A DNA stretch of 64,000 bases from Candidatus Chisholmbacteria bacterium RIFCSPHIGHO2_01_FULL_52_32 (GCA_001816585.1 MHCJ01000003.1:426971-490970); one strand, 5' to 3'. Numbered from the stretch's first letter, positions 1,632 through 63,861 are shown. Notes: generated by a model from the letters alone, not told the origin. Translations and numbers: made by a program.

Positions 1632-1662
1632 TTTCTCTTTTGTATCCTGATACAATACTACC

Positions 1663-39395: not shown

Positions 39396-40148
39396 TTAGA
39401 CGGGTTTAAATAGCCTACTTTTCGTGATCCCGTATTTATGGAGGAGATATTGCCCGAGGACCATGAAGCTTTCCGAGAGAAATTTCGCTCCTGCAAGAAG
39501 CCCGATCGATGAGGATTCCTCATAATAACGGACCGGAATCGGCGCTTCTCCGATGTTCAATCCGTATGAGATTGCAGAAACCGTGAATTGCTGGTCGAAG
39601 ATGAAATCGTTTGAGAATCGCTGGAATGGCACTGTCTTGAGGGTTTTTCGGCTATACGCCCGCATTCCGCTCATGTGCTCTGAGAAATTAACACCGAGGA
39701 TAATATTCGCGATAAGTGAATAGAGGCGGTTAAAAACGTACTTCAATTGCGGCATCCCGCCGGCCAAGGCCTCCGTTCTCGTCCGTATACGAGAGCCGAA
39801 CATGTAATCGTAGCGCTTCTGAATGATCGGTCGGACCAGTTCCGGAATGAGACTGGCGTCGTACTGGTAATCGGGATGGATCATGACTACGATATCCGGG
39901 TTTCTCTTGAGCGCCTCCCAGTAGCAGGTTTTTTGATTGCCGCCGTATCCGAGATTATTCGGATGGACAAATGTTGTGATTCCCAATTTTTTTGAAAGCT
40001 CGACGGTTTTATCTCTTGAGACATCGTCGACCAAGATGATCTCACTGACCCAATCTTTCGGGATGTCGTCGTAGGTCTTCTTTAACGTCTTTTCGGCGTT
40101 ATACGCCGGCATGACGACGATGATGGTTGGCTTGGAAACTTTGTTCAT
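39396..40148 (-). CDS. Polyprenyl-phosphate sugar synthase, GT2 (DPM1-like)
   Basis: IIVVMPAYNAEKTL...ILVDDVSRDKT...MIHPDYQYD. Confidence 0.7.
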   Translation of the reverse strand: MNKVSKPTIIVVMPAYNAEKTLKKTYDDIPKDWVSEIILVDDVSRDKTVELSKKLGITTFVHPNNLGYGGNQKTCYWEALKRNPDIVVMIHPDYQYDASLIPELVRPIIQKRYDYMFGSRIRTRTEALAGGMPQLKYVFNRLYSLIANIILGVNFSEHMSGMRAYSRKTLKTVPFQRFSNDFIFDQQFTVSAISYGLNIGEAPIPVRYYEESSSIGLLAGAKFLSESFMVLGQYLLHKYGITKSRLFKPV

Positions 40149-47808: not shown

Positions 47809-48165
47809 CTACTTCAGCATCTTTTGGAGTTCGAACAGAAAGACCAGCGGGTAGAGCGCGATGATTAAGTAAAGTACGTTCCATGCTTTTCCTCCCCTTT
47901 TGGCGATGAAGTAGAGGACTGCAAGGAAAGCGATCGCGCCCAGAGGACTTAATACCTCACCTAAGAACTTCGGCGAAAGGTAGTGGAAGTAGCAGCGGGC
48001 GTAATTGAGGAAGAAAAACACCGGTTTGTTGTGCAAAACCCGTGTGAGCCATAAGGGAGTACCGCTTGGTCCATCCGTCGTAATTGCTTCCCAGATTTGG
48101 AGAGGGACATCGGTGGTAATTGCCACATGCGTGCAGAACAATCCTTCCATAGTTATATCTCCCAA
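47809..48165 (-). CDS. Small hypothetical membrane protein
   Basis: 118 aa with two or three hydrophobic helices, embedded in the paralog array. No recognisable motif. Confidence 0.3.
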   Translation of the reverse strand: MGDITMEGLFCTHVAITTDVPLQIWEAITTDGPSGTPLWLTRVLHNKPVFFFLNYARCYFHYLSPKFLGEVLSPLGAIAFLAVLYFIAKRGGKAWNVLYLIIALYPLVFLFELQKMLK

Positions 48166-49688
48166 ATGTTAAATACCGTATCGCCATTTACCATTTTTAT
48201 CTGTTCGTAACCGGTCTTTTCGTCCGGCTTCTGCCAGAATGGCGCGATAATTAGGGCTCGTTTCCCAGTTTTGGCAATCTCCCAAGCGTATTGGAAGTAC
48301 TTCACTTTCCCCATCTCTTTTGCGGGGTTCGAGAGTTTGTGATAATCCGAAGGCTCAACGGGAAGGTAAAACGCAACGTAAAGTGGTGGTAGTGCATCGC
48401 TCACAAATATTTCGTCGTATGCGTCCCATCGCTTTGCAATTATCTCCACCGTTTCTTTTATTCCGTCTTGCCAATCGAGGGCTGTCTCCCGCGGATAATG
48501 GATGTAGTACTGATGGATGTACAACAGGATGTTGTAACCAACTGCCAGAGCGAGTACACCCAGTACCAAAATTCTGGTTGCCTCCCGTTTTTGACGGTTG
48601 ATTACCTTCAGTACCCCTACGGCTCCGATTGCCGTTATGATCTCCCACGCCGGAAGCATGTTCAAAGTACGGATCGCATGGGGATTGATGTTTGAGAGGG
48701 AAACCGATACGGGAGCAAGGAGAAGCCAGGCAAATACCATGTTTCTTCCGTTCCCTTTTCCTTTGATCAGGGTCCGGAGGCCGAGAAGAACCAGCGGCAG
48801 TTCAAATACATAGAGCATTCCAAGCTTTCTTACACTGTGCCTTCCATTTTGATCACCTCTGAAAAAGAGAAATGTGGTATCGAAATTTGCGAGATAATTT
48901 TCAAACACTTTGGGGAAGAGCTTTTCTTTTCCGATGATGCTTTCGGAATACGCACGGATGACCGCTTCTCCCGAAATGATCGACGGGACAAAGGGAAGAC
49001 TTAAGATCACACCCGTTACGACAGCGGTGGCAAGATCCCTTTTTGCTTTCATTACATTCTTCCTGCAAATCCAGACCAAAGCCAGGAGTATAAGGGGTGC
49101 AAACAAGCGTGTGCTGATATACGTAGCTGCGGAGAGTAAGAACAAGATGACAGAAACGGTTAACCACATCCCATGTTTACGAAGTGATACAAGAAATGCG
49201 TACCACCCTGCAACAAGGAAGAACAAGGCGAGGTTCGCCTCAAAGCCTCCCCGAGAAAATTGGAGATGCCATGGCGAAATCGCAAGAAGCAGTGCAGCTA
49301 CTGCCGCAATGGCTGATGGCTGATGGCTGATGGCTGATGGCTTTTTTTCAAACAGTTCAACGACGAGGAAGTACATCAGAAGAACCGTGAGGGTGCCGGC
49401 AAGGGCGGAGGGGAAACGGACGGCAAAATCCGATCTGCCAAGGAGCTTTACACTGATGGCTGCTATGTAAATATAGCCCGGATATTTGTAGTCTCCAAAA
49501 GCCCGAAAACTTACCGGTAAACTTTTTCCATATTGGTCCTTTCCCGTTTGCGCAATGGAGTATGCGTTATACCCGATCGAAATCTCATCCCAGTAGAGCC
49601 CGGGTGGCATTACGGCAAGATTGTAAAACCTTAAGACTCCGGCCAGGATCGTGATTAAGCTTAAGAGGAGGATCGTTTTCGCTTTCAT
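48153..49688 (-). CDS. GT-C glycosyltransferase, ArnT/PMT-like (GT39-type), paralog G
   Basis: LYWDEISIGYNAYSIA. The loop insert KKPSAISHQPSAISHQPSAI is encoded by (GCTGATG)4. Confidence 0.65.
   Translation of the reverse strand: MKAKTILLLSLITILAGVLRFYNLAVMPPGLYWDEISIGYNAYSIAQTGKDQYGKSLPVSFRAFGDYKYPGYIYIAAISVKLLGRSDFAVRFPSALAGTLTVLLMYFLVVELFEKKPSAISHQPSAIAAVAALLLAISPWHLQFSRGGFEANLALFFLVAGWYAFLVSLRKHGMWLTVSVILFLLSAATYISTRLFAPLILLALVWICRKNVMKAKRDLATAVVTGVILSLPFVPSIISGEAVIRAYSESIIGKEKLFPKVFENYLANFDTTFLFFRGDQNGRHSVRKLGMLYVFELPLVLLGLRTLIKGKGNGRNMVFAWLLLAPVSVSLSNINPHAIRTLNMLPAWEIITAIGAVGVLKVINRQKREATRILVLGVLALAVGYNILLYIHQYYIHYPRETALDWQDGIKETVEIIAKRWDAYDEIFVSDALPPLYVAFYLPVEPSDYHKLSNPAKEMGKVKYFQYAWEIAKTGKRALIIAPFWQKPDEKTGYEQIKMVNGDTVFNIWEI
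49307..49343 (-). repeat. Intragenic heptanucleotide tandem repeat (GCTGATG)4 plus a degenerate flank, next to a T7/A7 tract
   Basis: Read directly: gcaatg gctgatg gctgatg gctgatg gctgatg gct ttttttt. It encodes SAISHQP repeats in paralog G. Confidence 0.85.
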
Positions 49689-51352
49689 CTTTTCATGATT
49701 GAAACTGTCGGTTCACCGTTTGGAAGTCTAATGACCTTCAGCGCTTCATCCCTTTGTGATTTGGGCGTCTGTGCATAGAGATCAACAAGCAGCACCGGAG
49801 TTTCCGATGGACCTTCGCTGTAATTGATAGGTTGAAATAGAAACTTCCCGAATTTATTTTTGGTTTCCAGAAATCCTCCGGAAACCGTACCTCCGTCGAT
49901 ATTTATGTACGTCCACGGATCGTATTTTGTGTAGAACGCGAAGAAGTTCTGCGGTTGTCGGAGGTTGGTGGAAACGATCACTTTCGAGTTTTCGTCTTTA
50001 TGAAGATCAGCGTACTCCGCCGCCTCTTTATATCCATACTGCCAACTTTCCGCAAACTCAAGCGGCCCATGGACATAGTACTGATGGAGATAGTGATATA
50101 CGCTTCCGGCAACGAGTACGGCCGAAAGCATGAAGGTGACTATGCGCAAACCCTTCCTCATTTTCTTAACTGCGGCAAGAGCGGTAAGGACGCCGACTGC
50201 CGAGAAAATTTGCAGTGTCGGCAACGCTACGGTCATCCTTACTGAGCTTGGGATATCCCACGTCAGTGCCGAGGCAACCGGCGACAAAAGAAACCAACCG
50301 AGGAGAATTCCGAATGGCCGGCGGTCCTTGAGATGTGCCATTTTGCAGAGTCCGAGAAGAATAAGCGGCAATTCACCAAGGTAGAGGAGACCGACGTTCG
50401 GCGCATGATTGTACGGCATCCCTTTCGTTCCTAAGAATAAAAGGTCTGGTTGAAAGTGCTTTAGATAGCCGTCGCTAACCGTCAGAAATCCGGCGAAGTA
50501 TCGGTTGTGCAGGAACTTCACCCCCAGCCAGTCTTGTCTTTGAGCATCAACTACTCTCCTTCCTGTTTCTTTCTCAACAAGTCCCGGGTGCTCGAAGACG
50601 CTGGTTCCCTTAAATCGCATGAGCCCTGCTTGGGAAAATAGAATTGGGGAAAGCGGAAGGCTGAGGATTAAGAAAGCGAATGCCGCAATGCAGGCATCTC
50701 GCCTTTTTAGCCAAATGGTTTTCCCGTAAATTCCGGCAAGGGCGACCAAAAAGAGCGGAATAAAAAGCCTCGAAGTTTGATAGGTGTACAAAGAGAGGCT
50801 GAAGCTTGCCGCCGTGCCTATCCACCAACGGCCGTTTCCTCGAATACCTTTGAGAAATGTCCAGACGCCTAAAACGGTTAGGAATACCGCGATGTTGGTT
50901 TCAAATGCAACACGGGAGACCTGAAGGTGCCATGGCGAAATTGCGAGGAGAAGTGCGGCGATTTCGCCAACTGAAAACTGAAAACTGAAAACTGACAACT
51001 TTAGCCTCGGGAAAAGTTCCCTCACAAGAAAATAGGTCAAGAGGACCGTGAGAGTGCCGGCAAGGGCGGAGGGAAAGCGGACGGCAAATGGATTGAGGCC
51101 GGAGGCTGCAATTGAGGGAACCGAGAGGTAAATATACAGGGGCGGTTTGTAATCGTCGTGGGAGCGAAAGACGAGCGGCAAGCGCTTCCCATACTCATCC
51201 ATTCCCGTTTTGAGAATTGAGTAGGCGTTATAGCCGATCGCGACTTCATCGAGGTTCAGGCTTGGAGGATTTTTTCCGAGTTGATAGAATCGCAGCACCG
51301 CGGCGAGCGTGACTATAGCTGCTAGGGTAAATCCTGTTCGCATTTCCCTCAC
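49685..51352 (-). CDS. GT-C glycosyltransferase, ArnT/PMT-like (GT39-type), paralog H
   Basis: LNLDEVAIGYNAYSIL. The loop insert LKLSVFSFQFSV is encoded by (AACTGAA)3-4. Confidence 0.65.
   Translation of the reverse strand: MREMRTGFTLAAIVTLAAVLRFYQLGKNPPSLNLDEVAIGYNAYSILKTGMDEYGKRLPLVFRSHDDYKPPLYIYLSVPSIAASGLNPFAVRFPSALAGTLTVLLTYFLVRELFPRLKLSVFSFQFSVGEIAALLLAISPWHLQVSRVAFETNIAVFLTVLGVWTFLKGIRGNGRWWIGTAASFSLSLYTYQTSRLFIPLFLVALAGIYGKTIWLKRRDACIAAFAFLILSLPLSPILFSQAGLMRFKGTSVFEHPGLVEKETGRRVVDAQRQDWLGVKFLHNRYFAGFLTVSDGYLKHFQPDLLFLGTKGMPYNHAPNVGLLYLGELPLILLGLCKMAHLKDRRPFGILLGWFLLSPVASALTWDIPSSVRMTVALPTLQIFSAVGVLTALAAVKKMRKGLRIVTFMLSAVLVAGSVYHYLHQYYVHGPLEFAESWQYGYKEAAEYADLHKDENSKVIVSTNLRQPQNFFAFYTKYDPWTYINIDGGTVSGGFLETKNKFGKFLFQPINYSEGPSETPVLLVDLYAQTPKSQRDEALKVIRLPNGEPTVSIMKR
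50969..50996 (-). repeat. Intragenic heptanucleotide tandem repeat (AACTGAA)3 plus a degenerate unit
   Basis: aactgaa aactgaa aactgaa aactgac. It encodes SVFSFQFSV in paralog H. Confidence 0.8.
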
Positions 51353-52977
51353 TCCTTTGTCAAGAACTGCATAGCGATCGTCTGATCGGGCCTTCTTACG
51401 ACGTTCACTACTTTTGCTCCTTTAACTTCACCGCACTCTCCTACGTTTCCGTAGAGTGTTTTTCCCTCCGCCACTGTACGTTCATTCAATGGACAAGGGT
51501 CTCTGACGAAACGAACTTTCTCTCCAAAATCCCAATCTCCTTGAACGTTTCTTTTGTCATTTACAAGCTTCTGCGCAAGAGAAGGATCAGTTTTTGTAAA
51601 GAACAGGAAGTACAAATATGGCTCTGTCCCTGATTTACTGATGAGAATTTTGTCATACTTGCTTTGGACCTGGTTTACGTAGGCTACGATCTCCGGGAAC
51701 TGGATATTTCTGTTCCATGGCTGATGCAAGGGCTGATGGATAGTGTACTGATGGCTGAATCGTCCAATCTCCCAGACGACCCCAACAACGAATAAAACTG
51801 TTACCAGCGTACGCAGTAGCTTGGCTCTTTTTTGCACTTTTCTGTAAACAAACACGAACCCCATCGCCGTAATGATCTGAAAACCGGGGAGCATGAAGAC
51901 CGATCGTTGAATGTTGGGCGCATCTTCGGTTGTTAACGCTGCCGGAAGACCTCCTGCGAGAAACCAAAATAGTGCGTAGGCACTTGAAAGCTTGAATCGT
52001 TTTACTGCGGCGAAGAGCCCGAGGAGGAAAAAAGGCGCTTCAAACCAATACTGCAAAGTTTGTTCCGGAACCACATAGCGAGTCGGGTAACCGCCTTGGA
52101 CGAACAGGAAATTGAGACTTACGTATTTGAAATACTCCCGAAAGAACTCGCGAGCGCTGTTCTCGACTTTATTGTGAAAGAGGCGCGTCACCACAATGGG
52201 GAGCCCCACGCCCCCATCTTCCAGGAATGATGTTTGGAGGCGTGCCACGGCTGACTGGGGTGTAATATTGCCAATCTGTCGGTAGCGAGCAAGTCCGGCT
52301 CCGCTTTGTATCGTCACCCATACCGGCAGGACGGTAAAGAGCGCCAGCATGAGCGACAACACCAACGCTTGGGATTTTCGGTGCTTTACTAAAAGGAAAA
52401 TGATCCAAAAGAGCGCGTGGATATAGATGAACGGTCGTACTCCAATGTAGGAAAAGTACGTTACGACCCAGGAAAGATAGGTTAGCAGCAGTAATGCTGT
52501 ACCCTTGGATTTTACCCAAGACACCAGCAAAAGCATTGATCCCAAAAAGAAAACGAGGCCGAGAGCTCCGTCTGTCGTCGACCGCGAGAGGATGATGTGC
52601 CACGGGGAAACGGCAAACAGAGCACTTGAGAGTAATGCCAGTTGTTCGTCGTCAAAAAGCTTTTTGACAAGAACATATGTGAGGAAGACGGCAAATACCC
52701 CAAGAAGCGCAACCGAAAACCGTACGGCAAACACATTGACACCGAAGAGCGCTATCCAAGGGGACGTAAGGTACATCGAAAGCATTGGGCGGGCTTCGTT
52801 GTAAAAACTGGTATGGAGTGGTAAGAAGTTCCCGTTTTCGTCGCGGAGAGTTTTTAAGATCGAGTAGGCGTTATAGCCCACCTGAACTTCATCCATATCG
52901 AAGCCTGCCGGGAAACGGTCAAGCCATAGAAGCCGCAAGATCGCTGCCAGAATTAAAATCAGATACAGTTTCTTCAT
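51349..52977 (-). CDS. GT-C glycosyltransferase, ArnT/PMT-like (GT39-type), paralog I
   Basis: FDMDEVQVGYNAYSIL; FAVSPWHIILSR. Confidence 0.6.
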   Translation of the reverse strand: MKKLYLILILAAILRLLWLDRFPAGFDMDEVQVGYNAYSILKTLRDENGNFLPLHTSFYNEARPMLSMYLTSPWIALFGVNVFAVRFSVALLGVFAVFLTYVLVKKLFDDEQLALLSSALFAVSPWHIILSRSTTDGALGLVFFLGSMLLLVSWVKSKGTALLLLTYLSWVVTYFSYIGVRPFIYIHALFWIIFLLVKHRKSQALVLSLMLALFTVLPVWVTIQSGAGLARYRQIGNITPQSAVARLQTSFLEDGGVGLPIVVTRLFHNKVENSAREFFREYFKYVSLNFLFVQGGYPTRYVVPEQTLQYWFEAPFFLLGLFAAVKRFKLSSAYALFWFLAGGLPAALTTEDAPNIQRSVFMLPGFQIITAMGFVFVYRKVQKRAKLLRTLVTVLFVVGVVWEIGRFSHQYTIHQPLHQPWNRNIQFPEIVAYVNQVQSKYDKILISKSGTEPYLYFLFFTKTDPSLAQKLVNDKRNVQGDWDFGEKVRFVRDPCPLNERTVAEGKTLYGNVGECGEVKGAKVVNVVRRPDQTIAMQFLTKE

Positions 52978-53020: not shown

Positions 53021-53917
53021 TTAACCGAATTTTCCCAGTACTTCCCGATCGGACACGATACATAGTCGTTTTTCTTTCCATCTTTTCCTTATAGCTTGGG
53101 GGAACTTTAGAAAGGCTTTAAGCGTCCCCGCCACGAATGCCTTGTCGCTTGTGCAAACTGCCCTGAGGAATAACCAGGGAAGCCACACGATGTGACTGAC
53201 GATCATGGCCGGATCATGGATATTCTTCCAGACAAAGAGAATCTGATTTTTCGCAGCTATCCTCCGAATCCGCTCCCTCCCAAACGCGCTGACGTTGGTG
53301 CTTTCCGGTTCATGATGAACAATAGATTGCGGTTCGAAATGAACTTCCCATCCCCTTTTCCAAGCGCGATACGAGAGGTCGATGTCCTCCCAGTAGGCAG
53401 GGTGAAATAGCGTGTCCATACCCCGAAGCTTGAGCCACATTTCTCGGCGAAACGCCGCGCTTCCGCCGAATGCCCAGAGGGTTGGTCCGGGCGTTCGGTT
53501 TTTGGCTTCGGCGTGGACGAGGAGGCCCTTTTCAAATCTTCCGATCGCTTTTCCCCGTGTTTTCTCTCCAACCATCTCTTGGCATCCGACCGCAAAGACC
53601 CCTGGATCGTTAAAGTGCGGTTCAAGCGCTGTGAGAAAATTCGGCTCGGGATAAACGTCCGTGTTCAGAAGAATTACAATCTCTCCTTTCGCGTGCTGAA
53701 CACCTCTGTTACAGGCTTTCGCAAACCGGAGATTTTTGGAGTTTACCAAAAGGCGAACCTCGGGATATTTTGCTTTCAGGAGTTCTACGCTCTCGTCTGT
53801 TGAGGCATCGTCGACCACAATGACTTCATTTTTCCCAGCCGCCTTTAAAACCTCAGGGAGGTTCTTCTTAAGAAGATGAGCCCCATTATAATTCGGAATA
53901 ACGATAGAGAATTTCAT
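53021..53917 (-). CDS. Glycosyltransferase family 2
   Basis: FSIVIPNYNGAHLL...VIVVDDASTDES...LNTDV. I chose the internal ATG (MKFSIVIPNY) at 53917; the track ORF extends to 54079 inside the upstream gene. Confidence 0.7.
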   Translation of the reverse strand: MKFSIVIPNYNGAHLLKKNLPEVLKAAGKNEVIVVDDASTDESVELLKAKYPEVRLLVNSKNLRFAKACNRGVQHAKGEIVILLNTDVYPEPNFLTALEPHFNDPGVFAVGCQEMVGEKTRGKAIGRFEKGLLVHAEAKNRTPGPTLWAFGGSAAFRREMWLKLRGMDTLFHPAYWEDIDLSYRAWKRGWEVHFEPQSIVHHEPESTNVSAFGRERIRRIAAKNQILFVWKNIHDPAMIVSHIVWLPWLFLRAVCTSDKAFVAGTLKAFLKFPQAIRKRWKEKRLCIVSDREVLGKFG

Positions 53918-56147
53918 GCCGCCCAGATGGAACCATTGTACCACGCAAGCTGTAGAGGACCTGATGTATTTCAATCCCGGTCCCGTCGAGGGTCGCGGTC
54001 CACCCGGGATAGTAGGTGTCTGAGAGAACGAGCATCCCACCGGTTTGGCTGTCCACAAGGATCCCAACCTCATTTTCACGGTATTCCATGATCGAGGCGG
54101 ATTGGTTCACGTCCTCCTTTTTCATTGAAAATGCCTGTTCAAGGGACTGTCTTTCGGAGTTCGGCACAACATAGTTTGGGATCAGGAATGCGCGCGGGAA
54201 CGCTTGGTTATTTTTGTAGACCCTGGTTTCTCCTTCCTGAAATACCTTCTCAAGCTTGGGGTGCAAAAGATCCGTCAGACTGACGACATACTTTACGTTC
54301 AGAAGATCAACGATCGGCGATGCATAGTTGTCCGGCCGGATAATGCGATGGAAAGGGGTCGGTTCAAGGGTGGGCTCTCCTTTCTGCGAAGACGCTATTA
54401 ACTGGCCGAAGCGCCGGATATAGATCGGATCGTAACCCTCGAGCGTTTGGAATCGGTAGGGTATTGAAAAGTTCGGCGGGAAGATCCTGGCGTCCGTGGT
54501 GATGTAACGCCAGGGACTTTTGTCCTGAGCAAGAAAACGGACTGTTTCTGTTTGCGGGTAGAGGTAATCCTTATCCGAGAAAGGTGTGAATTTCCAAGAA
54601 AAGCGGAGAAGATCGGCAGAAGTGAGAATGAAAAGAACAATGAATAATGAATTATGAATTATGGTTTTGTTCTTTACCCTGAGCTTCACTAGATGCAAGG
54701 CGGCCATCAGGGTTATGCCGGCTGCGACAATAAGCATAGTCGGCAGAATGAGATTGCGCTGGGCCACTTTGAGGTTTTCGGCTGCCATATCTATTCCTGT
54801 CTTTCCGAACGTAAATACCCACAAGCCTCCGATTGTAGCTGCCGTTATCGACAATGCGATGAGCAGATGACGATTCAATCCCTTTCCTGCTCTTAAGTCT
54901 TTGAAGAATCTGTCGAGCCCAAAGGCGGCAAGGAGCGCCAAGCACAAATCAACAATCATCATCAACCGCGAAGGCTGTGCCGTTGAGATCAACGGAAGGT
55001 TCAATTGAAAAGGAATCCTTGAAAGCGGGTTTGATAGAGCAAAGATCAATGACAGAACCAATGCACAGATAAAGAATTTTTCTTGAAATGATTTCTTTCC
55101 TGAGGATGTGAATAATGCGGTCAGCGCGAATGCCAAAGGTATCATCCCAACATACCCGATGAACTCCGTGTAATTAAAAGCGCCCCAATAATTGAGTGTT
55201 GCAGGATTACCAAAAAAATCGGGGGCAACAAACTGCACTAGATTCTGCCATGGTAAAAACCAGTCCTGTCTCATCAACACGTCCCCCTGATCGATTTCCC
55301 GCGCAGAGTATCGCAGAAGTTTTGCGGTCGGAACCCACTGAACCGCAGTCAATGCCCCCACCGCGATCACGACCAGAGAAAGTTTGAGGATGGTTGTCTT
55401 TCTTCCGGACAGCCACAGCCTAACTCCTGCGTAGGCAAGAATCACGACAATAGCGTAAAAGGAAGTCTGCAAGAATCCGGCAAAAAGGATGCTTACCAGT
55501 GCAAAAGCAAGCGTTAGGTACCAAATCAGCCTTTCTTGCTTTACGATCCGTTCAATCCCAAGGAGTGCAAGCGGTACCCAGACGAGCGTATGAAGCGTCG
55601 TGTTCCACTCGAGCCAAGCGACTGAAAAGCCGCTCAATGCGAGCGAAAGGGAGGCAATGGAAGCGGCTTTCTTGGAAACACCAATGTCGGTTAGGAAGGC
55701 AAACAGAAAAAGAGCAAGCAGAAGAGGTTGCAGGATGACTTCGATGCTCCAAGCGGTTGGAAATGGCAAGAGAAAAAAGAGGATATTGAGCGGATAAAAA
55801 AGGGCGGTTTGGATGTTTGCCGCAAGCGGCGTGCCGGCATGGGTATAGGGATTCCACCCCGGGTATTGTCCGCTTTTGAGGAGGTCTATCGCGAGCTCAC
55901 GCCAGGGATACTGCTGTCTAATGGCATCGGTGATGAGGAAATTCTTGAAGGGAACTCCTGCCGTGAGCCCTTTCCACACCACGTCTCGAAAGGGATGATA
56001 CATTCCAACGATGGTATCCGCAGGAATGGGAAGCTTTCCTTTCATCCAGGCTGGTGAAAAAAATATGAATATCGGAAGTAGTAACAGAAAAAGGTAGATC
56101 CCTTTGTTTCGTGTGCGCCTTGCCACTGCTCTCCTGATTTTACTCAA
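53886..56147 (-). CDS. YfhO-family-like polytopic membrane glycosyltransferase (GT-C) with C-terminal extracytoplasmic domain
   Basis: 753 aa. ITDAIRQQYPWRE...GQYPGWNPYTHAGTPLAANIQTALFYPLN resembles the YfhO D..QQY-P...P.WNP..G.P N-terminal loop signature as I recall it. About 13 TM helices. Confidence 0.5.
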   Translation of the reverse strand: MSKIRRAVARRTRNKGIYLFLLLLPIFIFFSPAWMKGKLPIPADTIVGMYHPFRDVVWKGLTAGVPFKNFLITDAIRQQYPWRELAIDLLKSGQYPGWNPYTHAGTPLAANIQTALFYPLNILFFLLPFPTAWSIEVILQPLLLALFLFAFLTDIGVSKKAASIASLSLALSGFSVAWLEWNTTLHTLVWVPLALLGIERIVKQERLIWYLTLAFALVSILFAGFLQTSFYAIVVILAYAGVRLWLSGRKTTILKLSLVVIAVGALTAVQWVPTAKLLRYSAREIDQGDVLMRQDWFLPWQNLVQFVAPDFFGNPATLNYWGAFNYTEFIGYVGMIPLAFALTALFTSSGKKSFQEKFFICALVLSLIFALSNPLSRIPFQLNLPLISTAQPSRLMMIVDLCLALLAAFGLDRFFKDLRAGKGLNRHLLIALSITAATIGGLWVFTFGKTGIDMAAENLKVAQRNLILPTMLIVAAGITLMAALHLVKLRVKNKTIIHNSLFIVLFILTSADLLRFSWKFTPFSDKDYLYPQTETVRFLAQDKSPWRYITTDARIFPPNFSIPYRFQTLEGYDPIYIRRFGQLIASSQKGEPTLEPTPFHRIIRPDNYASPIVDLLNVKYVVSLTDLLHPKLEKVFQEGETRVYKNNQAFPRAFLIPNYVVPNSERQSLEQAFSMKKEDVNQSASIMEYRENEVGILVDSQTGGMLVLSDTYYPGWTATLDGTGIEIHQVLYSLRGTMVPSGRHEILYRYSEL
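54640..54667. repeat. Heptanucleotide array (ATGAATA/ATGAATT) x3-4 inside the YfhO-like CDS
   Basis: atgaata atgaatt atgaatt atggttt. It shares a 21-23 nt identity with the 30457..30477 array. Confidence 0.7.
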
Positions 56148-56746
56148 CCTATTGTTACCGAAAAAGATTGAAGGCGTTCCTTTAACTGGGCCAAGTCTTT
56201 GTAAAGAATCGCTTTCATTCCGGCAGATTTGGCGACTTCTACAAATTTTTCAACATCATCAATAAAAAGACACTCATGGGGTTTGACTCTGAGTTTCTTT
56301 GCCGCCAGGAGAAAAATCTCTTTCTCGTCTTTTGTCATTTTCACTTCATTGGAGAGAATGGTAACGTCAAATTCTTCCAATATTCCAAGCCTTCGGAGTA
56401 TGGGGACATGCTCATTGGTGGTATTTGTAATCACTCCTAATTTGTACCGTTTTAGGGAAGCGACCAAACCCATCATCTCAAGGTCAACGCTTACCAACTT
56501 TTCGTAATCATTAATCCATGCCTTTAACAGGTCGTTTACGGACATTTCTTTTTTATACTTTTTGGCTAATATTTGCATAACCTGTCGAGCGGTCATCGCC
56601 CCCTTACTCCAAGGTATGAGTTCTCTATTCAGATCCAGCCAAAATTGTTTTTTGTCAGAAGGTTTGAGAATTGCAAGAGTCCTATTGAGAAGCGGTTTCC
56701 AATCTATTATCACCCCTCCGAGGTCGAAGATAATTGCTTTGATCAT
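56144..56746 (-). CDS. HAD-superfamily hydrolase (subfamily IA; putative sugar-phosphatase)
   Basis: MIKAIIFDLGGVII (motif I DxG), LGVITNT and FIDD. Confidence 0.7.
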   Translation of the reverse strand: MIKAIIFDLGGVIIDWKPLLNRTLAILKPSDKKQFWLDLNRELIPWSKGAMTARQVMQILAKKYKKEMSVNDLLKAWINDYEKLVSVDLEMMGLVASLKRYKLGVITNTTNEHVPILRRLGILEEFDVTILSNEVKMTKDEKEIFLLAAKKLRVKPHECLFIDDVEKFVEVAKSAGMKAILYKDLAQLKERLQSFSVTIG

Positions 56747-57831
56747 GGCTGCCCGTAGCTTCTATCGTCTAACAAAGCGACGAACTTTTCGCAGAATGTC
56801 TGTTTTGAAAATTTCCCACTCGTCTCAATGGCATTCCGGGAAAGATTGTCCGTAAGCGTTTGGTCCTTCATCAATCGAAATGTCTTTTGTTTGAGTTCAT
56901 CGACTGTTTCCCAAAGCAAACCGTTCTCCCCGTCCGTCACGATTTCCGGTTGACCGCCTTTGTTGATAACGACCGGAATGCACCCGGCACTCATTGCCTC
57001 GGCGGTTGCGATACCGAAGTGCTCAACCCGTTCCGGGTGTTTTTGTTGATCCACCCCAAACCCAGCGGCGTGCCAGAAGAGTTTTGCCTTGCCATACGCT
57101 CCTTCGAGCGCCTCGTGAGAGACGTCCGGGGTGATTGTTATCGGATAACCACTGGCATCTTGAAGTAATTTTTCGAGAAGCGTTTTTCCCTCTTTGCTGC
57201 TTCCGACGAGGTGAAGTTCCCAACCGCTTAGGCCGGTGTCAACCATTTCCTTAAATGCGGCGACCAGGACATCCTGCCTCTTGTGATGGAGCGTTTCGGT
57301 AAACCTCCCGACGGAGAGAATGATGTTTTGTTTCTTTGTTTTCTTAGGCGAGATGTTGAGCGGTGGGTAGAGGATTTCGGAACGGACGTCATATTCCTTA
57401 TCGATTACCCTTTTTGTGAAGAGCGAATTGCAGATGATGTGGTGGATGTAGCTTAATTTGATGTGGTTTAAGATCGAGGTTCCATGAACATTGGTGAAGG
57501 GAATTTGGAAATGGAGGATGTTGTTTTTGGAGAATAATGGGGGAATGCTTCCGTCGCTTAAAAAAAAGACCACATCGTATCGGTGGGTTAATTGTCTTTT
57601 TTGAAGCCATTGTCCTCTTTTCGAAAAGAGCTCGTACCCCTTTGTATCTATGACGATTGGGTCGATGTTGATCCCCAGGAATTTCTTGATTGTTTTTTTG
57701 ATGGTCTCATCTTTCCAAAAGAGGTTCACCTGAAAGCCCTGTTTCAGTAAGCATTCAATCACGGAAGATGTATAGACTTCTCCCCCGCCGATTGTATCGA
57801 GATATGGATCGAAAACAGCTGCTTTCTTCAC
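56743..57831 (-). CDS. Glycosyltransferase family 1/4
   Basis: AAVFDPYLDTIGGGEVY; C-terminal EHFGIATAEAMSAGCIPVVINKGGQPEIV. Confidence 0.75.
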   Translation of the reverse strand: MKKAAVFDPYLDTIGGGEVYTSSVIECLLKQGFQVNLFWKDETIKKTIKKFLGINIDPIVIDTKGYELFSKRGQWLQKRQLTHRYDVVFFLSDGSIPPLFSKNNILHFQIPFTNVHGTSILNHIKLSYIHHIICNSLFTKRVIDKEYDVRSEILYPPLNISPKKTKKQNIILSVGRFTETLHHKRQDVLVAAFKEMVDTGLSGWELHLVGSSKEGKTLLEKLLQDASGYPITITPDVSHEALEGAYGKAKLFWHAAGFGVDQQKHPERVEHFGIATAEAMSAGCIPVVINKGGQPEIVTDGENGLLWETVDELKQKTFRLMKDQTLTDNLSRNAIETSGKFSKQTFCEKFVALLDDRSYGQP

Positions 57832-58667
57832 GGCTTTCTTGCTACTGCAACGATGAGGGCAGCATAGGTATAGGGAGAAATACTGTTTAACAACCTTTTT
57901 GCCATTCTTCCGAACCCATTGAGTTCAAAAATCTTTCCGCTATGGCTTATAAGTTTTGGAAAGTCCAGCCAAAGCGCGATGCTTCTCTCTTTTGAAAGAT
58001 CGTCTTTCGGATAAATCCTGATATTAATAAAACCGGCATCCTTCATAAACGCGAGGAGCTCGTTTTTCGTGTAGCGATATTCGTAAAATCGCATTTTTGG
58101 TTGCTGCCTGTTGTTCCGCAATCCGAGGGCCTCAACCATCAATCGCGCAGGAGTTTTTATAATGGTTTTTACTTGGTTTAAGGTACGAACACATCTACGG
58201 AGGAAAGAATCAAACGGCACTTCTATAATCGCCGTTCCGCCACGGCGCAGGACACGATACGCTTCTCCAAGCGCCTTTTGCGGTCCTTCCTCAAAATGTT
58301 CAACCACCCCCAAGGAAAGGTAGGAATCGAACGACCCATCGGGATAGGGAAGGGCTTTAATATCCGCCTTCTCCACTTTTGCCTGTTTGAAAAAGGCCTT
58401 CAGCTTTTTTATGGCGTAATCGTTTGCGTCAGCCCCTTCGATGTTATAACCCTGTTTGGCAAGGGTTATTACCCACTTTCCCATCCCACAGCCGGCTTCA
58501 AGGATCTTTCCTCTTTTTGACAAGTACTTTTCAAAAATGGGCTTGAGCCCATCGGTGTCTACGAGTTCCAGTTCCTGATCTAAAGAAGTCTTTTTCCAGT
58601 AGGCGTCCCACTCCTTGCCGATATCCGGAATATACTGCTTAAAGCTCATCGGAAATCTCCCTGTCAA
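57828..58667 (-). CDS. Class I SAM-dependent methyltransferase
   Basis: ILEAGCGMGKW; SLGVVEHF; LRRGGTAIIEVP. Confidence 0.8.
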   Translation of the reverse strand: MTGRFPMSFKQYIPDIGKEWDAYWKKTSLDQELELVDTDGLKPIFEKYLSKRGKILEAGCGMGKWVITLAKQGYNIEGADANDYAIKKLKAFFKQAKVEKADIKALPYPDGSFDSYLSLGVVEHFEEGPQKALGEAYRVLRRGGTAIIEVPFDSFLRRCVRTLNQVKTIIKTPARLMVEALGLRNNRQQPKMRFYEYRYTKNELLAFMKDAGFINIRIYPKDDLSKERSIALWLDFPKLISHSGKIFELNGFGRMAKRLLNSISPYTYAALIVAVARKP

Positions 58668-59445
58668 GGTCCTGGTACGTTTTTTTCATGGTCTTTTCCT
58701 GTTGCATTTCCCACAACCATACCATGATGAGGAATTGATTGAAGGCCTGATACAGTATTTCGATCCATCCTCTGATCCCGTCGCGCCAGCCACTTTCCTT
58801 GACTCCCCGAAACCAGAGCTCGCGAAAGGGAGCAGTAAGAAGATGTCGAATCTTTACCATTGGATGCTCTTCCTTCAGACGAAGCTCAGCCTCAAGTTGC
58901 GTATAACGGATCGTCTTCTCAAGCATCCAGAGAATGCCTCTGTGGGTGAAGTGGAGAAGTTCGCCTTTGAGCGTCCCCACCGATCCTTCAACATTTGGGT
59001 GTTCGTGGAGTTCTCCGGCCCAACCCTTGAATGCCTGTTTTTCTATGAGTCGATGTTGATCATCCGGATACCACCCGCCATAGCGAAGCCACCTCCCCAA
59101 GATCATGTTTTTGTGGGGAATGCGGTAAGACCGATACAAAGACTCTTTCTGTTTTAACAGGGCTTGGATCTCTTCCCGCAATTCTTTTGAGACGCGTTCA
59201 TCCGCATCAACATAGAAGATCCACTCACCCTTTGCTTCTTTCGCACCTACATCCCGTTGTTTGGGAAATCCCTGCCAAGGCGTACGTATAATCTTTGCCC
59301 CTTTCGTCTTTGCGATCTCAAGTGTCCTGTCCGTTGACCCTGCGTCCACAACAACGATCTCATCCGTCCATGAAAGCGACTGCAGGCATCCAGGAAGAAA
59401 TCCTTCCTCGTTGAGGGTGAGAACGATTGCAGAAATAGCTTTCAT
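58639..59445 (-). CDS. Glycosyltransferase family 2
   Basis: ISAIVLTLNEEGFLPGCLQSL...IVVVDAGSTDRT...FYVDADE. Confidence 0.8.
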   Translation of the reverse strand: MKAISAIVLTLNEEGFLPGCLQSLSWTDEIVVVDAGSTDRTLEIAKTKGAKIIRTPWQGFPKQRDVGAKEAKGEWIFYVDADERVSKELREEIQALLKQKESLYRSYRIPHKNMILGRWLRYGGWYPDDQHRLIEKQAFKGWAGELHEHPNVEGSVGTLKGELLHFTHRGILWMLEKTIRYTQLEAELRLKEEHPMVKIRHLLTAPFRELWFRGVKESGWRDGIRGWIEILYQAFNQFLIMVWLWEMQQEKTMKKTYQDLDREISDEL

Positions 59446-61151
59446 CTGACTACGAAAATTGTACTCATTGCATTGCTAAATATTTTGCTTATAGGAAAGC
59501 CATCTTTCTCCAGTTCCTCGAGCATCGCCGTATCACCTTTGGAATCGCTGTAGATATGAGTAATTTTAGCATCTTTCAGTATTCTTTCTCTCCTGTCGAC
59601 AGGAGTCTCTGGGGAAAAAAATTCTTCCACCGCTTCCAGGCGATATTGATATGGGGTGTCGGTTAAAACTGCGAACGTTTCTCCGGAAAAATAGGTCCTT
59701 CGTCCTCCGAGTCCCGGAATCTTCATGAGGTAGCGATGCTGACTGGAAATCGGGGTTAATACGACACTTTCCTCAGGCAGTGTGTTGACAAATTGCATCG
59801 CCTCTACTTCTTTAATCGGGACTGTGACTGATTCTTCCTGATTTGCCAAAATAAATGTCTTGATTGTAGTCGGGATGGAGAGGATAAACAGCAGGATAAG
59901 AAGCGCAGTATGGGGTTTCTTTTCCGTTATTTCGACAACGAGCAGAATGCTGAGTAACATGAGCGCGTAGGGGCTGAACTGGATGGTGTTGTACACCGAG
60001 ACCGGCTGGACGAATAGGAGAGGAATTCCCAGAGAAAAGACAACAGCACCGATAAGGAAGAAATCCATCGTTGATGCCCTTGAGAATCTTAAAATTTTCT
60101 TGCCAATCCAGATAAACGCAAGAATCCTTACCCCCAAATTTCCGACTAGATAAAGGCCGAATTCTTCAAGATTGATCTGAATAAATCGCGGTATGTTCCC
60201 CGCTGCCGTGTAATGTTGGTAGAGTTGGGTAAGGTGCTCGTTGTAAAAACGACCGCTGTCTTCCACCATCCTTCTTAAGATCCATCCGGGAAGGAAAAGA
60301 AGCGGCGGTTTTGTTGTTGAAGAAGTCCAGAGGGTAAAGCCAAGAAATAGCCCGGTTGCAATCAGCGTCGGCAAGAGCATCTTCCGACTTCGCCGTAGTA
60401 CCAGTTCCGGAACAAGCGCCGTCCAAAGTGCTCCGACCGCCACAATTCCGGCATATGCCTTTACTGCTGTTGAGAGTCCGAGGAGCAGACCGGAAAATAT
60501 GGCGTCGTTCTTTCGCCCATCCTGCACGAAGCGGTGGAGAATGCTCACGCCAAACAGGAAGATTGAGAATCCCAGTACCGTATGCACATTGGTCAGCTGG
60601 TCAAACGGCTGATCGAGCATGAATGAGTTCGCAAACCATGGCGTGTTTTTTCCGAGGAGAAGCGGTATCGTGTAGGCTGCACTGCCGCCGAACACCGTAA
60701 ACGCCGCTCCCGTAAGTCCCTTCCATGTTGATTTTGTCAGGCGTTTTGCCAACATGAACGCGGAGAGCGCAAAGAGGAAGGCAACTACGGGTGGAGCAAG
60801 ATACATGTAGACCGTCTCGACCGATAGGCCACTGCCCTGATGCACCAGCATCAAGATGAAGTCCGAAAGAAAGTGGTAGTTCAAAAGCGGTACACCAGCC
60901 ATTCCCGGGTTTTGCGGTGGGAACGACCTTGCCAGTTCATGGATCACGGCGAAGTGCCAGAGCGTATCGTGAAGCATCGGGATGTGTATTCCGTCTCCTT
61001 TAAACCAAGCGCCGGAGAGGAAATGCCAACTCTGGGAGAGGCTTGCTACAAGCAAAAACACACCAACAGAAAGGTGTTCGATCCATCTTTGTCTTTGGTT
61101 CCCTTTTTGATTACTCGTTGATTTTGGAGATGATGATCGATTCATTTTCAA
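59442..61151 (-). CDS. Large polytopic membrane protein, uncharacterised family (putative GT-C-like), paralog 1
   Basis: 569 aa. Loop motif MLHDTLWHFAVIHELARSFPPQNPGMAGVPLLNYHFLSDF. Multi-TM N-terminus plus a C-terminal soluble domain. Confidence 0.4.
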   Translation of the reverse strand: MKMNRSSSPKSTSNQKGNQRQRWIEHLSVGVFLLVASLSQSWHFLSGAWFKGDGIHIPMLHDTLWHFAVIHELARSFPPQNPGMAGVPLLNYHFLSDFILMLVHQGSGLSVETVYMYLAPPVVAFLFALSAFMLAKRLTKSTWKGLTGAAFTVFGGSAAYTIPLLLGKNTPWFANSFMLDQPFDQLTNVHTVLGFSIFLFGVSILHRFVQDGRKNDAIFSGLLLGLSTAVKAYAGIVAVGALWTALVPELVLRRSRKMLLPTLIATGLFLGFTLWTSSTTKPPLLFLPGWILRRMVEDSGRFYNEHLTQLYQHYTAAGNIPRFIQINLEEFGLYLVGNLGVRILAFIWIGKKILRFSRASTMDFFLIGAVVFSLGIPLLFVQPVSVYNTIQFSPYALMLLSILLVVEITEKKPHTALLILLFILSIPTTIKTFILANQEESVTVPIKEVEAMQFVNTLPEESVVLTPISSQHRYLMKIPGLGGRRTYFSGETFAVLTDTPYQYRLEAVEEFFSPETPVDRRERILKDAKITHIYSDSKGDTAMLEELEKDGFPISKIFSNAMSTIFVVR

Positions 61152-63057
61152 AGACTTTTGTGAGGGTTAATCCATTAGGATTGAAGGCTCGATTTTCTTC
61201 TTGTGTGAGCAGAAGATAATCGATTGAGTTGGTATCGACGATTCTGTTTCGTAACCCAGGATCGGAGTTACGGAAAAAGGATCGGAGCTCTGCTTCTCTT
61301 CCCTCGTAATCCTCTCCGGTGATCCGAGAGAAGGTGTTGGCGGAGAAATAGGTCGGTCGCTCTGATAACGCCGCAACCAGGGCCGAGGAGAGATTGATCT
61401 TTGACGGATAGAGAAGGATTATGCTTTCAGGAGGGGTCTCCTTCTTTAGGTAATCGAACGCTTCGAGGGTTAAACGGGGGACGAGAAACGGTTGATCGTT
61501 GAAGCGATCCACAATGCTGGTTGCATTCGAGGGAACTGACAAAACAAGAAGGATAATCGAAAGAGCAATCGCAAGCTTGCCGTTGGTTGCTTGAAGAATC
61601 TGTTTCAGGATGAGTACGGTGAATATGGAAAGCATCACTAACGAGTAGGGTCCGAACTGGATAATGTCATATGACATCCTTCCTTGATTGAAAAGCAACG
61701 GCAATGACAGTGAAGCTGTGGTTACCGTGAGCATGAATATTCCCGCGAGAGAGGGTCTTTTTACAATCACAATCACGTATACGAGGCCGAGTGTTTTCAC
61801 CCAAAGGTTACCAAAGAGAAATATCAGCATTTGCTTGAAGTTTACAATCGCCAATCGTAAGACGTTATGGGTTGCCTGGTAGTGCTGTTCTAATAAGAAA
61901 TACCTGGGGACATTGTAGCGGTCCGGATCCTCGACCATCCGCTTCAATAGCCAACCGGGTACCCAGACGAGTCCGGCGGCAGTTTTTGCATCATAAACGG
62001 GAATGAAAATAACCGCAGAAACGAACCCGGCGAGAAACCAAACTCCCCACAAATCATGGCGTTTGTTTTTCAGTGACATCCACAGCGCTGCGATAGGCAA
62101 GGCAAGTAGCATGATGATCCCTCCCCAAGCCTTAAAGCCGATTATGACGCCGAAGGTAATCGCCGTGAGCATCAAGATTACCATGTTTCTTTTCTTTTCC
62201 AAAATCATCAGTCCCAAAAGACCAGCAAGCATCAATGGAAAAACGACAACCGCATGGGGATTCTGCATGAGATCGACAATGGGATCCAACATGAACGTAT
62301 TCGCTGAAGGATGGAATTCCGGGCCCCGGAAAAATTGCAGAGCCCATGAGGCATTCCCCGCAAAAAGAGTCAGGATGACTGCGGCATTGGCGAGCCATTC
62401 TGAGCGGCTGAGGCGCCGTGCAACCACAAATACGCTGAGGCTTAAGAATGCTGAGACAGCAGCAGGGGTAAGCCGATAGTACAGCTCGAATGTCGATAAC
62501 GGAAGGTAACGTGCCATCGATGCCAGGGTGAGGTCAAGCAGGAAGTGATAATTCTTTACGAGTACGGGTGCAAATCCAGGATGTCGCGGGGGGAAATTTT
62601 GTTTTAATTCATCGATGAGGAAGATATGCCATGTCGAGTCATGGAGGCTCAACTGTCCAAATTGGAGTCCTTGGGCCGTCCAAACCCCGCTTCGGAAAAG
62701 GACTTGTCCCTGGATTACGATCCCCACAATGGCAAGGATAAGGAAAGCAACTTGTGCTTTCGCTAGTGATCTTGTCCTCGGCTTCCACTCCTTAAGCCAT
62801 CGCCCTCCTTCAACAAAACCAAGCATGAAGAACGGTAACTCGGCAACCCAGAATGGTAGTCCAAGGAAGCGGATGAGAAAGATCAACAGCACATAGCAAA
62901 CAAATCCGAATGTAGTTCCAAGGAATATCCGCTCTGTTACCCGCAGGTTGATGGTCTTTGGGAGAAGCCGCATACCAGGCAAGAGCCAGATCATTACGGC
63001 GAACAGACCCGCCAGAAGAGCGTTGGTTAGCGTAAGGATTAGGTTTTCTCCGAGCAT
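61111..63057 (-). CDS. Large polytopic membrane protein, uncharacterised family (putative GT-C-like), paralog 2
   Basis: Loop motif LSLHDSTWHIFLIDELKQNFPPRHPGFAPVLVKNYHFLLDL. I chose the ATG at 63057 (MLGENLIL) to avoid a 117-nt divergent overlap with the + gene at 63118; the track start is 63234. Confidence 0.4.
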   Translation of the reverse strand: MLGENLILTLTNALLAGLFAVMIWLLPGMRLLPKTINLRVTERIFLGTTFGFVCYVLLIFLIRFLGLPFWVAELPFFMLGFVEGGRWLKEWKPRTRSLAKAQVAFLILAIVGIVIQGQVLFRSGVWTAQGLQFGQLSLHDSTWHIFLIDELKQNFPPRHPGFAPVLVKNYHFLLDLTLASMARYLPLSTFELYYRLTPAAVSAFLSLSVFVVARRLSRSEWLANAAVILTLFAGNASWALQFFRGPEFHPSANTFMLDPIVDLMQNPHAVVVFPLMLAGLLGLMILEKKRNMVILMLTAITFGVIIGFKAWGGIIMLLALPIAALWMSLKNKRHDLWGVWFLAGFVSAVIFIPVYDAKTAAGLVWVPGWLLKRMVEDPDRYNVPRYFLLEQHYQATHNVLRLAIVNFKQMLIFLFGNLWVKTLGLVYVIVIVKRPSLAGIFMLTVTTASLSLPLLFNQGRMSYDIIQFGPYSLVMLSIFTVLILKQILQATNGKLAIALSIILLVLSVPSNATSIVDRFNDQPFLVPRLTLEAFDYLKKETPPESIILLYPSKINLSSALVAALSERPTYFSANTFSRITGEDYEGREAELRSFFRNSDPGLRNRIVDTNSIDYLLLTQEENRAFNPNGLTLTKVFENESIIISKINE

Positions 63058-63117
63058 TTCTCCTGCTATTATAAACAACTGTTGGCCGATTGAGTGAGAG
63101 GTTTTTGAAGCAAAGTT
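63058..63117. promoter_or_regulatory. Divergent intergenic region at the head of the 41-kb minus-strand gene block; TATTATAAA element
   Basis: 60 nt between the divergent ATGs at 63057 (-) and 63118 (+). Confidence 0.25.
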
Positions 63118-63861
63118 ATGGCTATGCGAGCGGATCTTTTCCCTGAGATGTATCGGCTTGAGGAAACCTATTGGTGGCACGTTGCGAAACGGCGGCTTGT
63201 CCTTACGCTCCTTACCCCTTTTCTTCGCAACCATGCTCCTGGCGCTTTTCTTGATGTCGGTTGCGGAACGGGGATGATGCTTAAGGATCTCTCAGCTCTC
63301 GGGCGGGTGGTTGGGATTGACGGAACCATGGACGCTCTGCGGTATTCCCGTCAACGGGGAGCGTCCTGTGTCATCCTTGCTGATTGTTCGCGCCCCTTCC
63401 CCATTCGTTCGTCAGCTATCCATGTGGTGACGATGCTCGATGTTTTGGAGCATCTCGATGATGACGATCTGCCCATTTCCGAAATTCATCGCCTCTTGCG
63501 TCCGTCCGGAATGTTTGTACTTACCGTTCCGGCCTATCCTTTTCTTTGGACGTACTGGGATGAAATTCTCGGACACAAACGGCGTTATCGAAGAAGTGCT
63601 CTGGTCAAAAAACTTGAGCGCAATGGATTCTCCGTTCTCCGACATTCCTACTTCTATTCATATCTTCTGCCTGTGGCTATTCTCTTTCGCGTCACCAAAT
63701 CACTTCTTGGGGTCAACGTGAAGATGCGCTCCGACTTCATTGCTCTCCCACGATGGCTGAACCGCTTCCTGCTTTCTATGTCTTATCTTGAGCAGTACGC
63801 TACGCGTTTTGTGCGAATTCCTGCGGGACTTTCGGTCATCTGCGTCTGCAAGAAGATTTAG
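63118..63861 (+). CDS. Class I SAM-dependent methyltransferase
   Basis: FLDVGCGTGMM; VTMLDVLEHLDDDD; LRPSGMFVLTVP. Confidence 0.8.
   Translation: MAMRADLFPEMYRLEETYWWHVAKRRLVLTLLTPFLRNHAPGAFLDVGCGTGMMLKDLSALGRVVGIDGTMDALRYSRQRGASCVILADCSRPFPIRSSAIHVVTMLDVLEHLDDDDLPISEIHRLLRPSGMFVLTVPAYPFLWTYWDEILGHKRRYRRSALVKKLERNGFSVLRHSYFYSYLLPVAILFRVTKSLLGVNVKMRSDFIALPRWLNRFLLSMSYLEQYATRFVRIPAGLSVICVCKKI

Follow-up and report, generated by a model that had tools for sequence, protein, structure and literature searches.

We analysed two adjacent genes, A and B, in a 64,000-nucleotide (nt) stretch of DNA, hereafter the window, from Candidatus Chisholmbacteria bacterium RIFCSPHIGHO2_01_FULL_52_32 (MHCJ01000003.1:426971-490970; GCA_001816585.1). 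All coordinates are relative to this window and are collected in Table 1. Both genes encode large membrane proteins, which are named hypothetical at NCBI and 'Glycosyltransferase RgtA/B/C/D-like domain-containing protein' by the automatic naming of UniRef. We take 'RgtA/B/C/D-like' to be the InterPro label for the Pfam family PMT_2. The earliest possible start of A is the TTG at 61151 (569 amino acids, aa), and database entries begin at the ATG at 61145 (567 aa). The maximal open reading frame of B is 61111..63234. The start of B at 63057 was preferred because an AGGAG Shine-Dalgarno sequence lies 5 nt upstream, because it agrees with the N-termini and lengths (approximately 640–660 aa) of the homologs and with the 648-aa database entry, and because it clears the divergent methyltransferase gene upstream of B. 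The start at 63234 was rejected, as its 59 extra residues are strongly basic and, given the predicted number of helices, would have to sit outside the cell, and it overlaps that methyltransferase gene.

Counted from its ATG, A shares 35 nt with the 3′-end of B, and it also overlaps B if the TTG is used. The orthologous genes of a relative (51% identity) overlap by the same 35 nt. A and B are co-transcribed and probably translationally coupled. A promoter and terminator scan of the 53–64 kb region gave counts at or below the shuffled expectation. BLASTP aligned A and B with 30% identity across approximately 535 aa (E = 2e-67). By this alignment A and B are true paralogs, and their common layout and motif therefore come from paralogy and not from chance. 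An earlier reading of this DNA made from the sequence alone (the sequence-only reading) had described a paralog pair of the same layout with a shared loop motif, and both descriptions held.

The loop motif common to A and B is HD(T/S)(L/T)WH…FPP…PG…NYHFL, spelled LHDTLWHFAVIHELARSFPPQNPGMAGVPLLNYHFLSD in A and LHDSTWHIFLIDELKQNFPPRHPGFAPVLVKNYHFLLD in B. Conservation was measured in an alignment of 64 diverse relatives and is given in the numbering of A. The residues D62, N91, H93, N188, K231, W290, N338, and Q391 were invariant, and W65, P82, G86, F177, P288, G337, R342, N388, F392, and Y395 were conserved in at least 90% of the relatives. H61 was conserved in 88%, and position 342 was basic in all. 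The loop motif is thus common to the whole family and not peculiar to the pair. The family motif set comprises HDxxWH, NYH, (D)QPFDQ/N188, K231, PGW, GNLGxR, and IQF. A and B each retain every invariant residue. D62 of A (D140 of B) is the sole invariant acidic column and is the putative catalytic Asp. With a single invariant acidic residue, a metal site built from several carboxylates as in PglB is, if anything, less likely.

AlphaFold2 (AF2) models of A and B had pLDDT values of 93.2 and 93.1 and pTM values of 0.91 and 0.93, respectively. In the model of A, the first transmembrane (TM) helix (TM1, residues 15–45) is followed by loop 1, which consists of a small hairpin and two helices (residues 60–75 and 95–107). 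The model has 11 TM helices, 10 of them after the motif loop. The model of B has 14 TM helices, because three extra N-terminal helices (residues 2–31, 40–64, and 69–90) precede the canonical TM1. The loops connecting the extra helices are basic, and the external N-terminus is very short. The sequence-only reading had placed the motif in the first extracytoplasmic loop of both proteins, followed by about 12 TM helices and a C-terminal soluble domain. The placement was right for A but not for B, the helix number was too high for A, and a C-terminal alpha/beta domain was present in both models. D62 is the third residue of the helix 60–75 of A and lies at its N-terminal tip, and D140 lies in the first turns of the helix 135–153 of B. 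The N-terminus of A should be inside because it is basic; with 11 TM helices, the C-terminal domain should therefore be outside. Under this topology, the invariant polar residues N91, H93, N188, K231, W290, N338, and Q391 fall in loops or helix ends on the outer face.

The GT-CA module of glycosyltransferases comprises TM helices 1–7, with two juxtamembrane (JM) helices between TM1 and TM2, and GT-CA enzymes carry a catalytically essential conserved Asp at the tip of JM helix 1 (PMC12041299). The models of A and B have such a TM1-7 module with two JM helices, and the invariant Asp lies at the tip of JM helix 1. Foldseek comparison of the AF2 models with known folds, the kind of check that the sequence-only reading had proposed, returned STT3, DPY19, AglB, and PglB at E-values of 1e-8 to 1e-6. 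The longest-aligned top matches were STT3B, AglB, and PglB, and AftA, Pmt4, and ArnT scored equally well. The heteromeric GT-C paralog complexes Pmt1-Pmt2 and EmbA-EmbB were also matched. O-antigen ligases, SEDS proteins, and Wzy-type proteins, which belong to the GT-CB class and related clans (PMC10920833), were not among the structural matches of A and B, and neither was a WaaL- or RodA-type fold. Based on the models, we assign A and B to the GT-C fold and the GT-CA structural class with high confidence.

The known GT-CA enzymes (STT3/AglB/PglB of GT66, PMT of GT39, ArnT of GT83, AftA/AftB/AftD/Emb, ALG6, and DPY19) share with A and B the two-helix extracytoplasmic loop after TM1, an Asp at the tip of loop helix 1 (invariant in this family), conserved basic residues suited to bind a lipid phosphate, and an extracytoplasmic C-terminal domain. 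A and B differ from them in having no sequence match to any solved member, their own motif set, and 11 (A) or 14 (B) TM helices. The placements other than a glycosyltransferase that the sequence-only reading had considered, namely O-antigen ligase, Wzy polymerase, or a transporter, did not appear; the transporters in the Foldseek list had a probability of at most 0.14 and a TM-score of approximately 0.1. A and B could also be GT-C-fold proteins without enzymatic activity, such as scaffold or substrate-binding proteins like PIG-U/GAB1. The Asp of JM helix 1 and a set of polar residues facing outward are retained without exception in over 60 divergent sequences, and we consider such a non-enzymatic or transport role highly improbable.

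No Pfam-A model was matched at threshold by A, B, or the 64 relatives, and no recurrent family emerged when the 64 members were scanned singly against Pfam. No NCBIfam model was matched at threshold by A, B, protein C (described below), the YfhO-like protein, or one PMT_2 paralog of the window. The family profile gave no match at E ≤ 10 against PDB sequences. With the GT-C fold of the models, these results bear out the claim that A and B are GT-C enzymes outside the named families. For PMT_2 (PF13231), A reached 17 bits (E = 0.007), below the gathering threshold of 26.1 bits, and B had no match. Only one of the 64 members reached E ≤ 0.1, and of the 63 members tested besides B, 62 had no match. 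Profile alignment (hhalign) of the A/B family with the PMT_2 paralogs of the window gave 72–77% probability. The likeness to PMT_2 consists of a weak local similarity over TM4-TM7, the UniRef label of A and B, and a Gottesmanbacteria family member that shares an operon with PMT_2 genes. In contrast to A and B, the PMT_2 paralogs of the window have a D-E loop motif (…LDWDEASIGYNAY…) in place of HD…WH.

A kinship with YfhO (PF09586) was tried and rejected, as there was no Pfam match and hhalign against the YfhO-like protein of the window and its orthologs gave only 11%. The likeness to YfhO-type loops in the sequence-only reading was therefore not supported, and the nearest profiles were those of PF10131 and PMT_2. 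Membership of the oligosaccharyltransferases (OSTs) by family was likewise rejected. None of the 64 members carries the WWDYG motif (pattern W[WYF]D[WYF]G and string WWD), they share no further acidic motif (a second DxD/ExD or a Glu in extracytoplasmic loop 5, EL5), and the Pfam scans of A, B, and the 64 members gave no match to STT3 (PF02516). A and B resemble AglB and PglB in having a C-terminal alpha/beta globular domain of the AglB type, but differ from these GT66 enzymes in the same three respects. By profile comparison, the A/B family forms a branch of its own within the GT-C superfamily, with PF10131 and PMT_2 as its nearest sequence neighbours.

PF10131 (PTPS_related) belongs to the Pfam GT-C clan CL0111, and its function is unknown (PMC7801869). 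It is represented in the window by protein C, which is identical to a Candidatus Chisholmbacteria protein. C itself reached 20.1 bits against the cut-off of 26.4 bits, and most C homologs carry PF10131. At this threshold, PF10131 was not matched by A, B, or any of the 64 members. Nothing was detected when C was aligned as a single sequence with the family profile in hhalign. Profile–profile alignment of the A/B family with the C family gave 76.7% probability (E = 2e-5, 256 columns), and a second, independently built alignment, in which C was joined by six PF10131-like relatives from the retrieved loci, gave 85.5% (E = 5.7e-6, 427 columns, approximately 13% identity). In the latter alignment, L-H-D-TLW-H of A pairs with S-H-D-GET-H of C, and FPP pairs with IPP. 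PF10131 is thus the best profile–profile match, with the loop-1 HDxxxH…PP aligned residue for residue. However, PF10131 has its own invariant set (R143, E148, E241, H257, D355, PWR, and NRN), and its C-terminal part differs. The sequence-only reading had put C in the same motif family. These comparisons indicate that C and A/B are remote superfamily relatives and not one family.

A and C are also alike in their surroundings. Each overlaps by 4 nt a GT2 gene downstream, and the two GT2s (268 and 266 aa) are paralogous, with 34% identity (E = 2e-41). The unit 'HD-motif GT-C + GT2 (+GT4)' is thus present twice in the window. The two GT2s presumably resemble LgtF/WaaE-type GT2s, which act on lipid-anchored acceptors at the cytoplasmic face.

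A word-indexed search found 34 relatives of A and B. When 1.84 billion cluster representatives were searched exhaustively with a profile, 4,427 matched at E ≤ 1e-3 and 1,106 at E ≤ 1e-30. The family thus has more than 1,100 clusters (50% identity) in metagenomes, chiefly from Microgenomates-group bacteria of the candidate phyla radiation (CPR). The named host genomes are Candidatus Chisholmbacteria, Gottesmanbacteria, Microgenomates, and 'Patescibacteria group'. A genome scan with a narrow family alignment gave 18 loci, biased toward the 'DQPFDQ' subgroup. In Gottesmanbacteria, the family member lies between four and two PMT_2 genes and is single in all loci examined within ±6 kb. Four GTDB contigs (L005, L007, L015, and L018) labelled 'uncultured Gammaproteobacteria' or 'Bacteroidota' have the order PMT_2 x4, member, PMT_2 x2, epimerase. 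Because this gene order is of the Gottesmanbacteria type, the contigs are probably mis-binned or mislabelled CPR. Some relatives (P0101, P0057, and P0062) carry a fused N-terminal extracytoplasmic domain of approximately 450–550 aa with a weak DUF3863/3lm3 match. P0101 is additionally fused to an N-terminal Wzx-type flippase (Polysacc_synt_3, 9.5e-55), a Rosetta-stone link to the export of lipid-linked glycans. The literature on GT-C glycosylation in CPR bacteria or Gottesmanbacteria yielded nothing useful.

The neighbour-joining tree separates the Gottesmanbacteria B-type clade from a group that joins the short A-type clade, B, and P0012. The B-A tandem was found only in this window and in one Chisholmbacteria metagenome-assembled genome (MAG), and in the loci L006 and L016, whose gene order is the same, B stands without A. 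Because of this distribution, A is most likely an old, lineage-restricted duplicate that lost three N-terminal helices. A and B could form an obligate heterodimer like Pmt1-Pmt2 or EmbA-EmbB, in which case the pair, and not either protein by itself, would be the functional glycosyltransferase. The adjacency of the paralogs, the 35-nt overlap kept in the relative with 51% identity, and the matches to both heteromeric complexes are consistent with this. However, B-type genes are solitary in L006, L016, and the Gottesmanbacteria loci, so that a heterodimer is not required. Moreover, neither A nor B looks degenerate in its invariant residues. We regard an obligate heterodimer as doubtful.

The whole 64-kb window is a glycan-biosynthesis island. 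It holds approximately 15 GT-C-like genes, approximately 12 GT4s, at least 7 GT2s, and many S-adenosylmethionine (SAM)-dependent methyltransferases. Seven GT-C genes pass the PMT_2 threshold, six of them in one head-to-tail array at 40–53 kb. The other GT-C-like genes are GT87-, PIG-V/Mannosyl_trans2-, MptA-, PF10131-, and YfhO-like genes, one gene for a 618-aa protein, A, and B. Two DegT aminotransferases, a UDP-GlcNAc 2-epimerase, NAD-dependent epimerase/dehydratases, a GNAT acetyltransferase, an EamA transporter, and a HAD hydrolase are also present. A and B head a conserved operon (B-A-GT2-methyltransferase-GT4-HAD-YfhO-GT2-PMT_2 array). The order of divergent methyltransferase, B, [A], GT2, methyltransferase, GT4, [HAD], YfhO, GT2, and PMT_2 genes, in which brackets mark the genes not always present, is kept in the Chisholmbacteria/Patescibacteria loci L001, L006, and L016. 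The orthologous locus L001 also has a Wzx gene upstream.

Table 1. Positions of A, B, and other features of the window
Feature	Position	Strand	Remarks
Gene A	59442..61151	-	567/569 aa; predicted membrane glycosyltransferase, GT-C fold, 11 predicted TM helices, C-terminal alpha/beta domain
A loop motif	60861..60971	-	extracytoplasmic loop 1: H61-D62…W65-H66…P78-P79…N91-Y92-H93…D97
A C-terminal alpha/beta domain	59445..59834	-	residues ~440-569; extracytoplasmic by topology (model)
Gene B	61111..63057	-	648 aa; predicted membrane glycosyltransferase, GT-C fold, 14 predicted TM helices, C-terminal alpha/beta domain
B loop motif	62533..62643	-	after fourth helix: H139-D140…N169-Y170-H171…D175
B C-terminal alpha/beta domain	61114..61497	-	residues ~521-648; extracytoplasmic by topology (model)
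Divergent methyltransferase gene	63118..63861		upstream of B
GT2 after A	58639..59445	-	268 aa; start overlaps A stop by 4 nt; Pfam Glycos_transf_2, 1.3e-19
SAM-methyltransferase	57828..58667	-	Pfam
GT4	56743..57831	-	Pfam
HAD hydrolase	56144..56746	-	Pfam
YfhO-family GT-C	53886..56147	-	Pfam
Protein C	37612..39366	-	PF10131 (PTPS_related) family member; SHDGETH in loop 1
GT2 after C	36815..37615	-	266 aa
PpgS-like GT2	32027..32710	-	227 aa; NCBIfam NF058614, E 1.6e-49, profile 4-220/226, below equivalog cut-off
Polyprenyl-/dolichyl-phosphate-sugar-synthase-like GT2s	39396..40148, 18793..19521		AglJ- and Dol-P-hexose-transferase-like matches
GT-C-like genes, first part	492..1715, 20228..22084(+), 34574..35722, 37612..39366, 40145..41776, 41773..43323, 43364..44890, 44790..46160		
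GT-C-like genes, second part	46157..47791, 48153..49688, 49685..51352, 51349..52977, 53886..56147, 59442..61151, 61111..63057		
618-aa membrane protein	20228..22084	+	
508-aa membrane protein	43364..44890	-	
628-aa fusion protein	23216..25102	-	
391-aa protein	3011..4186	+	

Several other genes of the window were of note. No Pfam or NCBIfam match was obtained for the 618-aa polytopic membrane protein, in which several extra helices at the N-terminus precede a PMT_2-like loop motif (…DIASDEREIGYRAYDL…) and which is probably another divergent GT-C. The 508-aa membrane protein has no Pfam match and a weak similarity to TIGR03459 (E = 3e-10, far below the cut-off), the mycobacterial alpha-(1->6)-mannopyranosyltransferase A type (NCBIfam). 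The 628-aa protein joins a GT4 to a SAM-dependent methyltransferase domain at its C-terminus; this fusion and at least 8 stand-alone methyltransferases elsewhere in the window suggest that the product contains methylated sugars. The 391-aa protein has a sub-threshold similarity (E = 3.6e-5) to the alpha-alpha toroid repeats of squalene-hopene cyclase C-terminal/prenyltransferase-like proteins.

The paralogy, the conserved motif, the GT-C fold of the models, the topology, and the synteny are observed, and catalysis by A and B, the donor class, the acceptor, and the roles of individual residues are inferred. A and B are quite probably catalytically competent GT-CA glycosyltransferases that use polyprenyl-phosphate-sugar donors extracytoplasmically. 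As in the GT-CA enzymes of solved structure, the polyprenyl-phosphate sugar, made on the cytoplasmic face and flipped, would enter a membrane-facing groove. The donor phosphate would be held by basic residues (K231 and R342 in A; K309 and K421 in B). The invariant Asp (D62 in A, D140 in B), which sits at the tip of loop helix 1 and in A is flanked by the conserved H61, W65, N91, and H93, may activate or position the acceptor hydroxyl. Outside the membrane, the sugar would then pass to a cell-surface glycan or glycoprotein that is being extended. Loop 4, with the invariant W290 in PGW, and the C-terminal alpha/beta domain probably aid acceptor binding. Because A and B are co-transcribed at the head of a conserved operon, each would most likely contribute a different residue or linkage as the glycan is assembled step by step on the extracytoplasmic side. 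A lipid-phosphate-monosaccharide donor is favoured over a lipid-diphosphate-oligosaccharide, since the window has candidate synthases and no undecaprenyl-diphosphate pathway, and since the family has a single invariant acidic residue. By their matches, the three small GT2s (the PpgS-like protein, which matches this polyprenyl-phospho-GalNAc synthase over its full length, and the two polyprenyl-/dolichyl-phosphate-sugar-synthase-like proteins) are candidate makers of lipid-phosphate-sugar donors. AftA, AftB, ALG6, and PimE are metal-independent GT-CA enzymes (PMC12041299).

Some points weigh against A and B being GT-CA enzymes that use lipid-phosphate sugars. The structures are predictions, and the gathering of the conserved residues in one pocket is deduced from the topology alone. 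The ties to known GT-C families in sequence are weak (hhalign 72–86%, no Pfam match at threshold). The best structural matches include STT3, AglB, and PglB, which use lipid-diphosphate-oligosaccharides, and P0101 is fused to a Wzx-type flippase. The last two points would fit an OST- or ligase-like A and B that transfer a pre-assembled glycan en bloc from polyprenyl diphosphate to a protein or wall polymer. Such a function would also agree with the Wzx gene upstream in L001 and with the cytoplasmic GT2, GT4, and methyltransferase genes directly downstream, which could build a lipid-linked oligosaccharide. However, besides the missing OST hallmarks (WWDYG in 0/64 members, no PglB-type second DxD/ExD or EL5 Glu next to the one invariant acidic residue, and no STT3 match), the lipid-phosphate-monosaccharide users AftA, Pmt4, and ArnT match the models as well as the OSTs do. 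No initiating phosphoglycosyltransferase, Wzx, or Wzy was found within the 64-kb window, and Wzx-type flippases have been proposed for C55-P-sugars too (PMC8035078). En bloc transfer is therefore unlikely. A particular form of it seems a long shot: the family may be a CPR-specific, WWDYG-less OST relative, with a TM core like that of STT3/AglB and a C-terminal domain like that of AglB, that moves a Wzx-flipped, methylated lipid-linked oligosaccharide en bloc to surface proteins or the wall. If so, the bacterial enzymes that glycosylate proteins or the cell wall would gain a new class, and A and B would represent two acceptor specificities or a heterodimer.

The GT-CA assignment thus concerns a large family with its own diagnostic motifs and no curated Pfam or NCBIfam model. 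The sequence-only reading had suggested an 'undescribed' GT-C clade. No curated family or characterised member was found, but the word was slightly overstated, as the GT-C nature of A and B had already been flagged automatically by the RgtA/B/C/D-like label of UniRef. The gain lies mainly in annotating two 'hypothetical' CPR proteins and in a hypothesis on catalysis that can be tested, and not in a new kind of mechanism. The assignment gives the more than 1,100 clusters a usable annotation, a set of motifs that are diagnostic of the family, and a candidate catalytic Asp as a target of mutagenesis. Structure prediction has been recommended for finding GT-C families (PMC8035078) and is now a routine route, by which GT136 was recently recognised as a new GT-C sequence family (PMC11127046). 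Likewise, should one member be characterised, the A/B family would be a candidate for a new CAZy family.

CPR/Patescibacteria are episymbionts with tiny genomes. At least 64 kb devoted to glycan assembly, including approximately 15 GT-C genes, is an unusually heavy investment in extracytoplasmic glycosylation for a CPR bacterium with a small genome. Such an investment in spite of the tiny genome suggests that surface glycans matter to the lifestyle of the bacterium that carries A and B.

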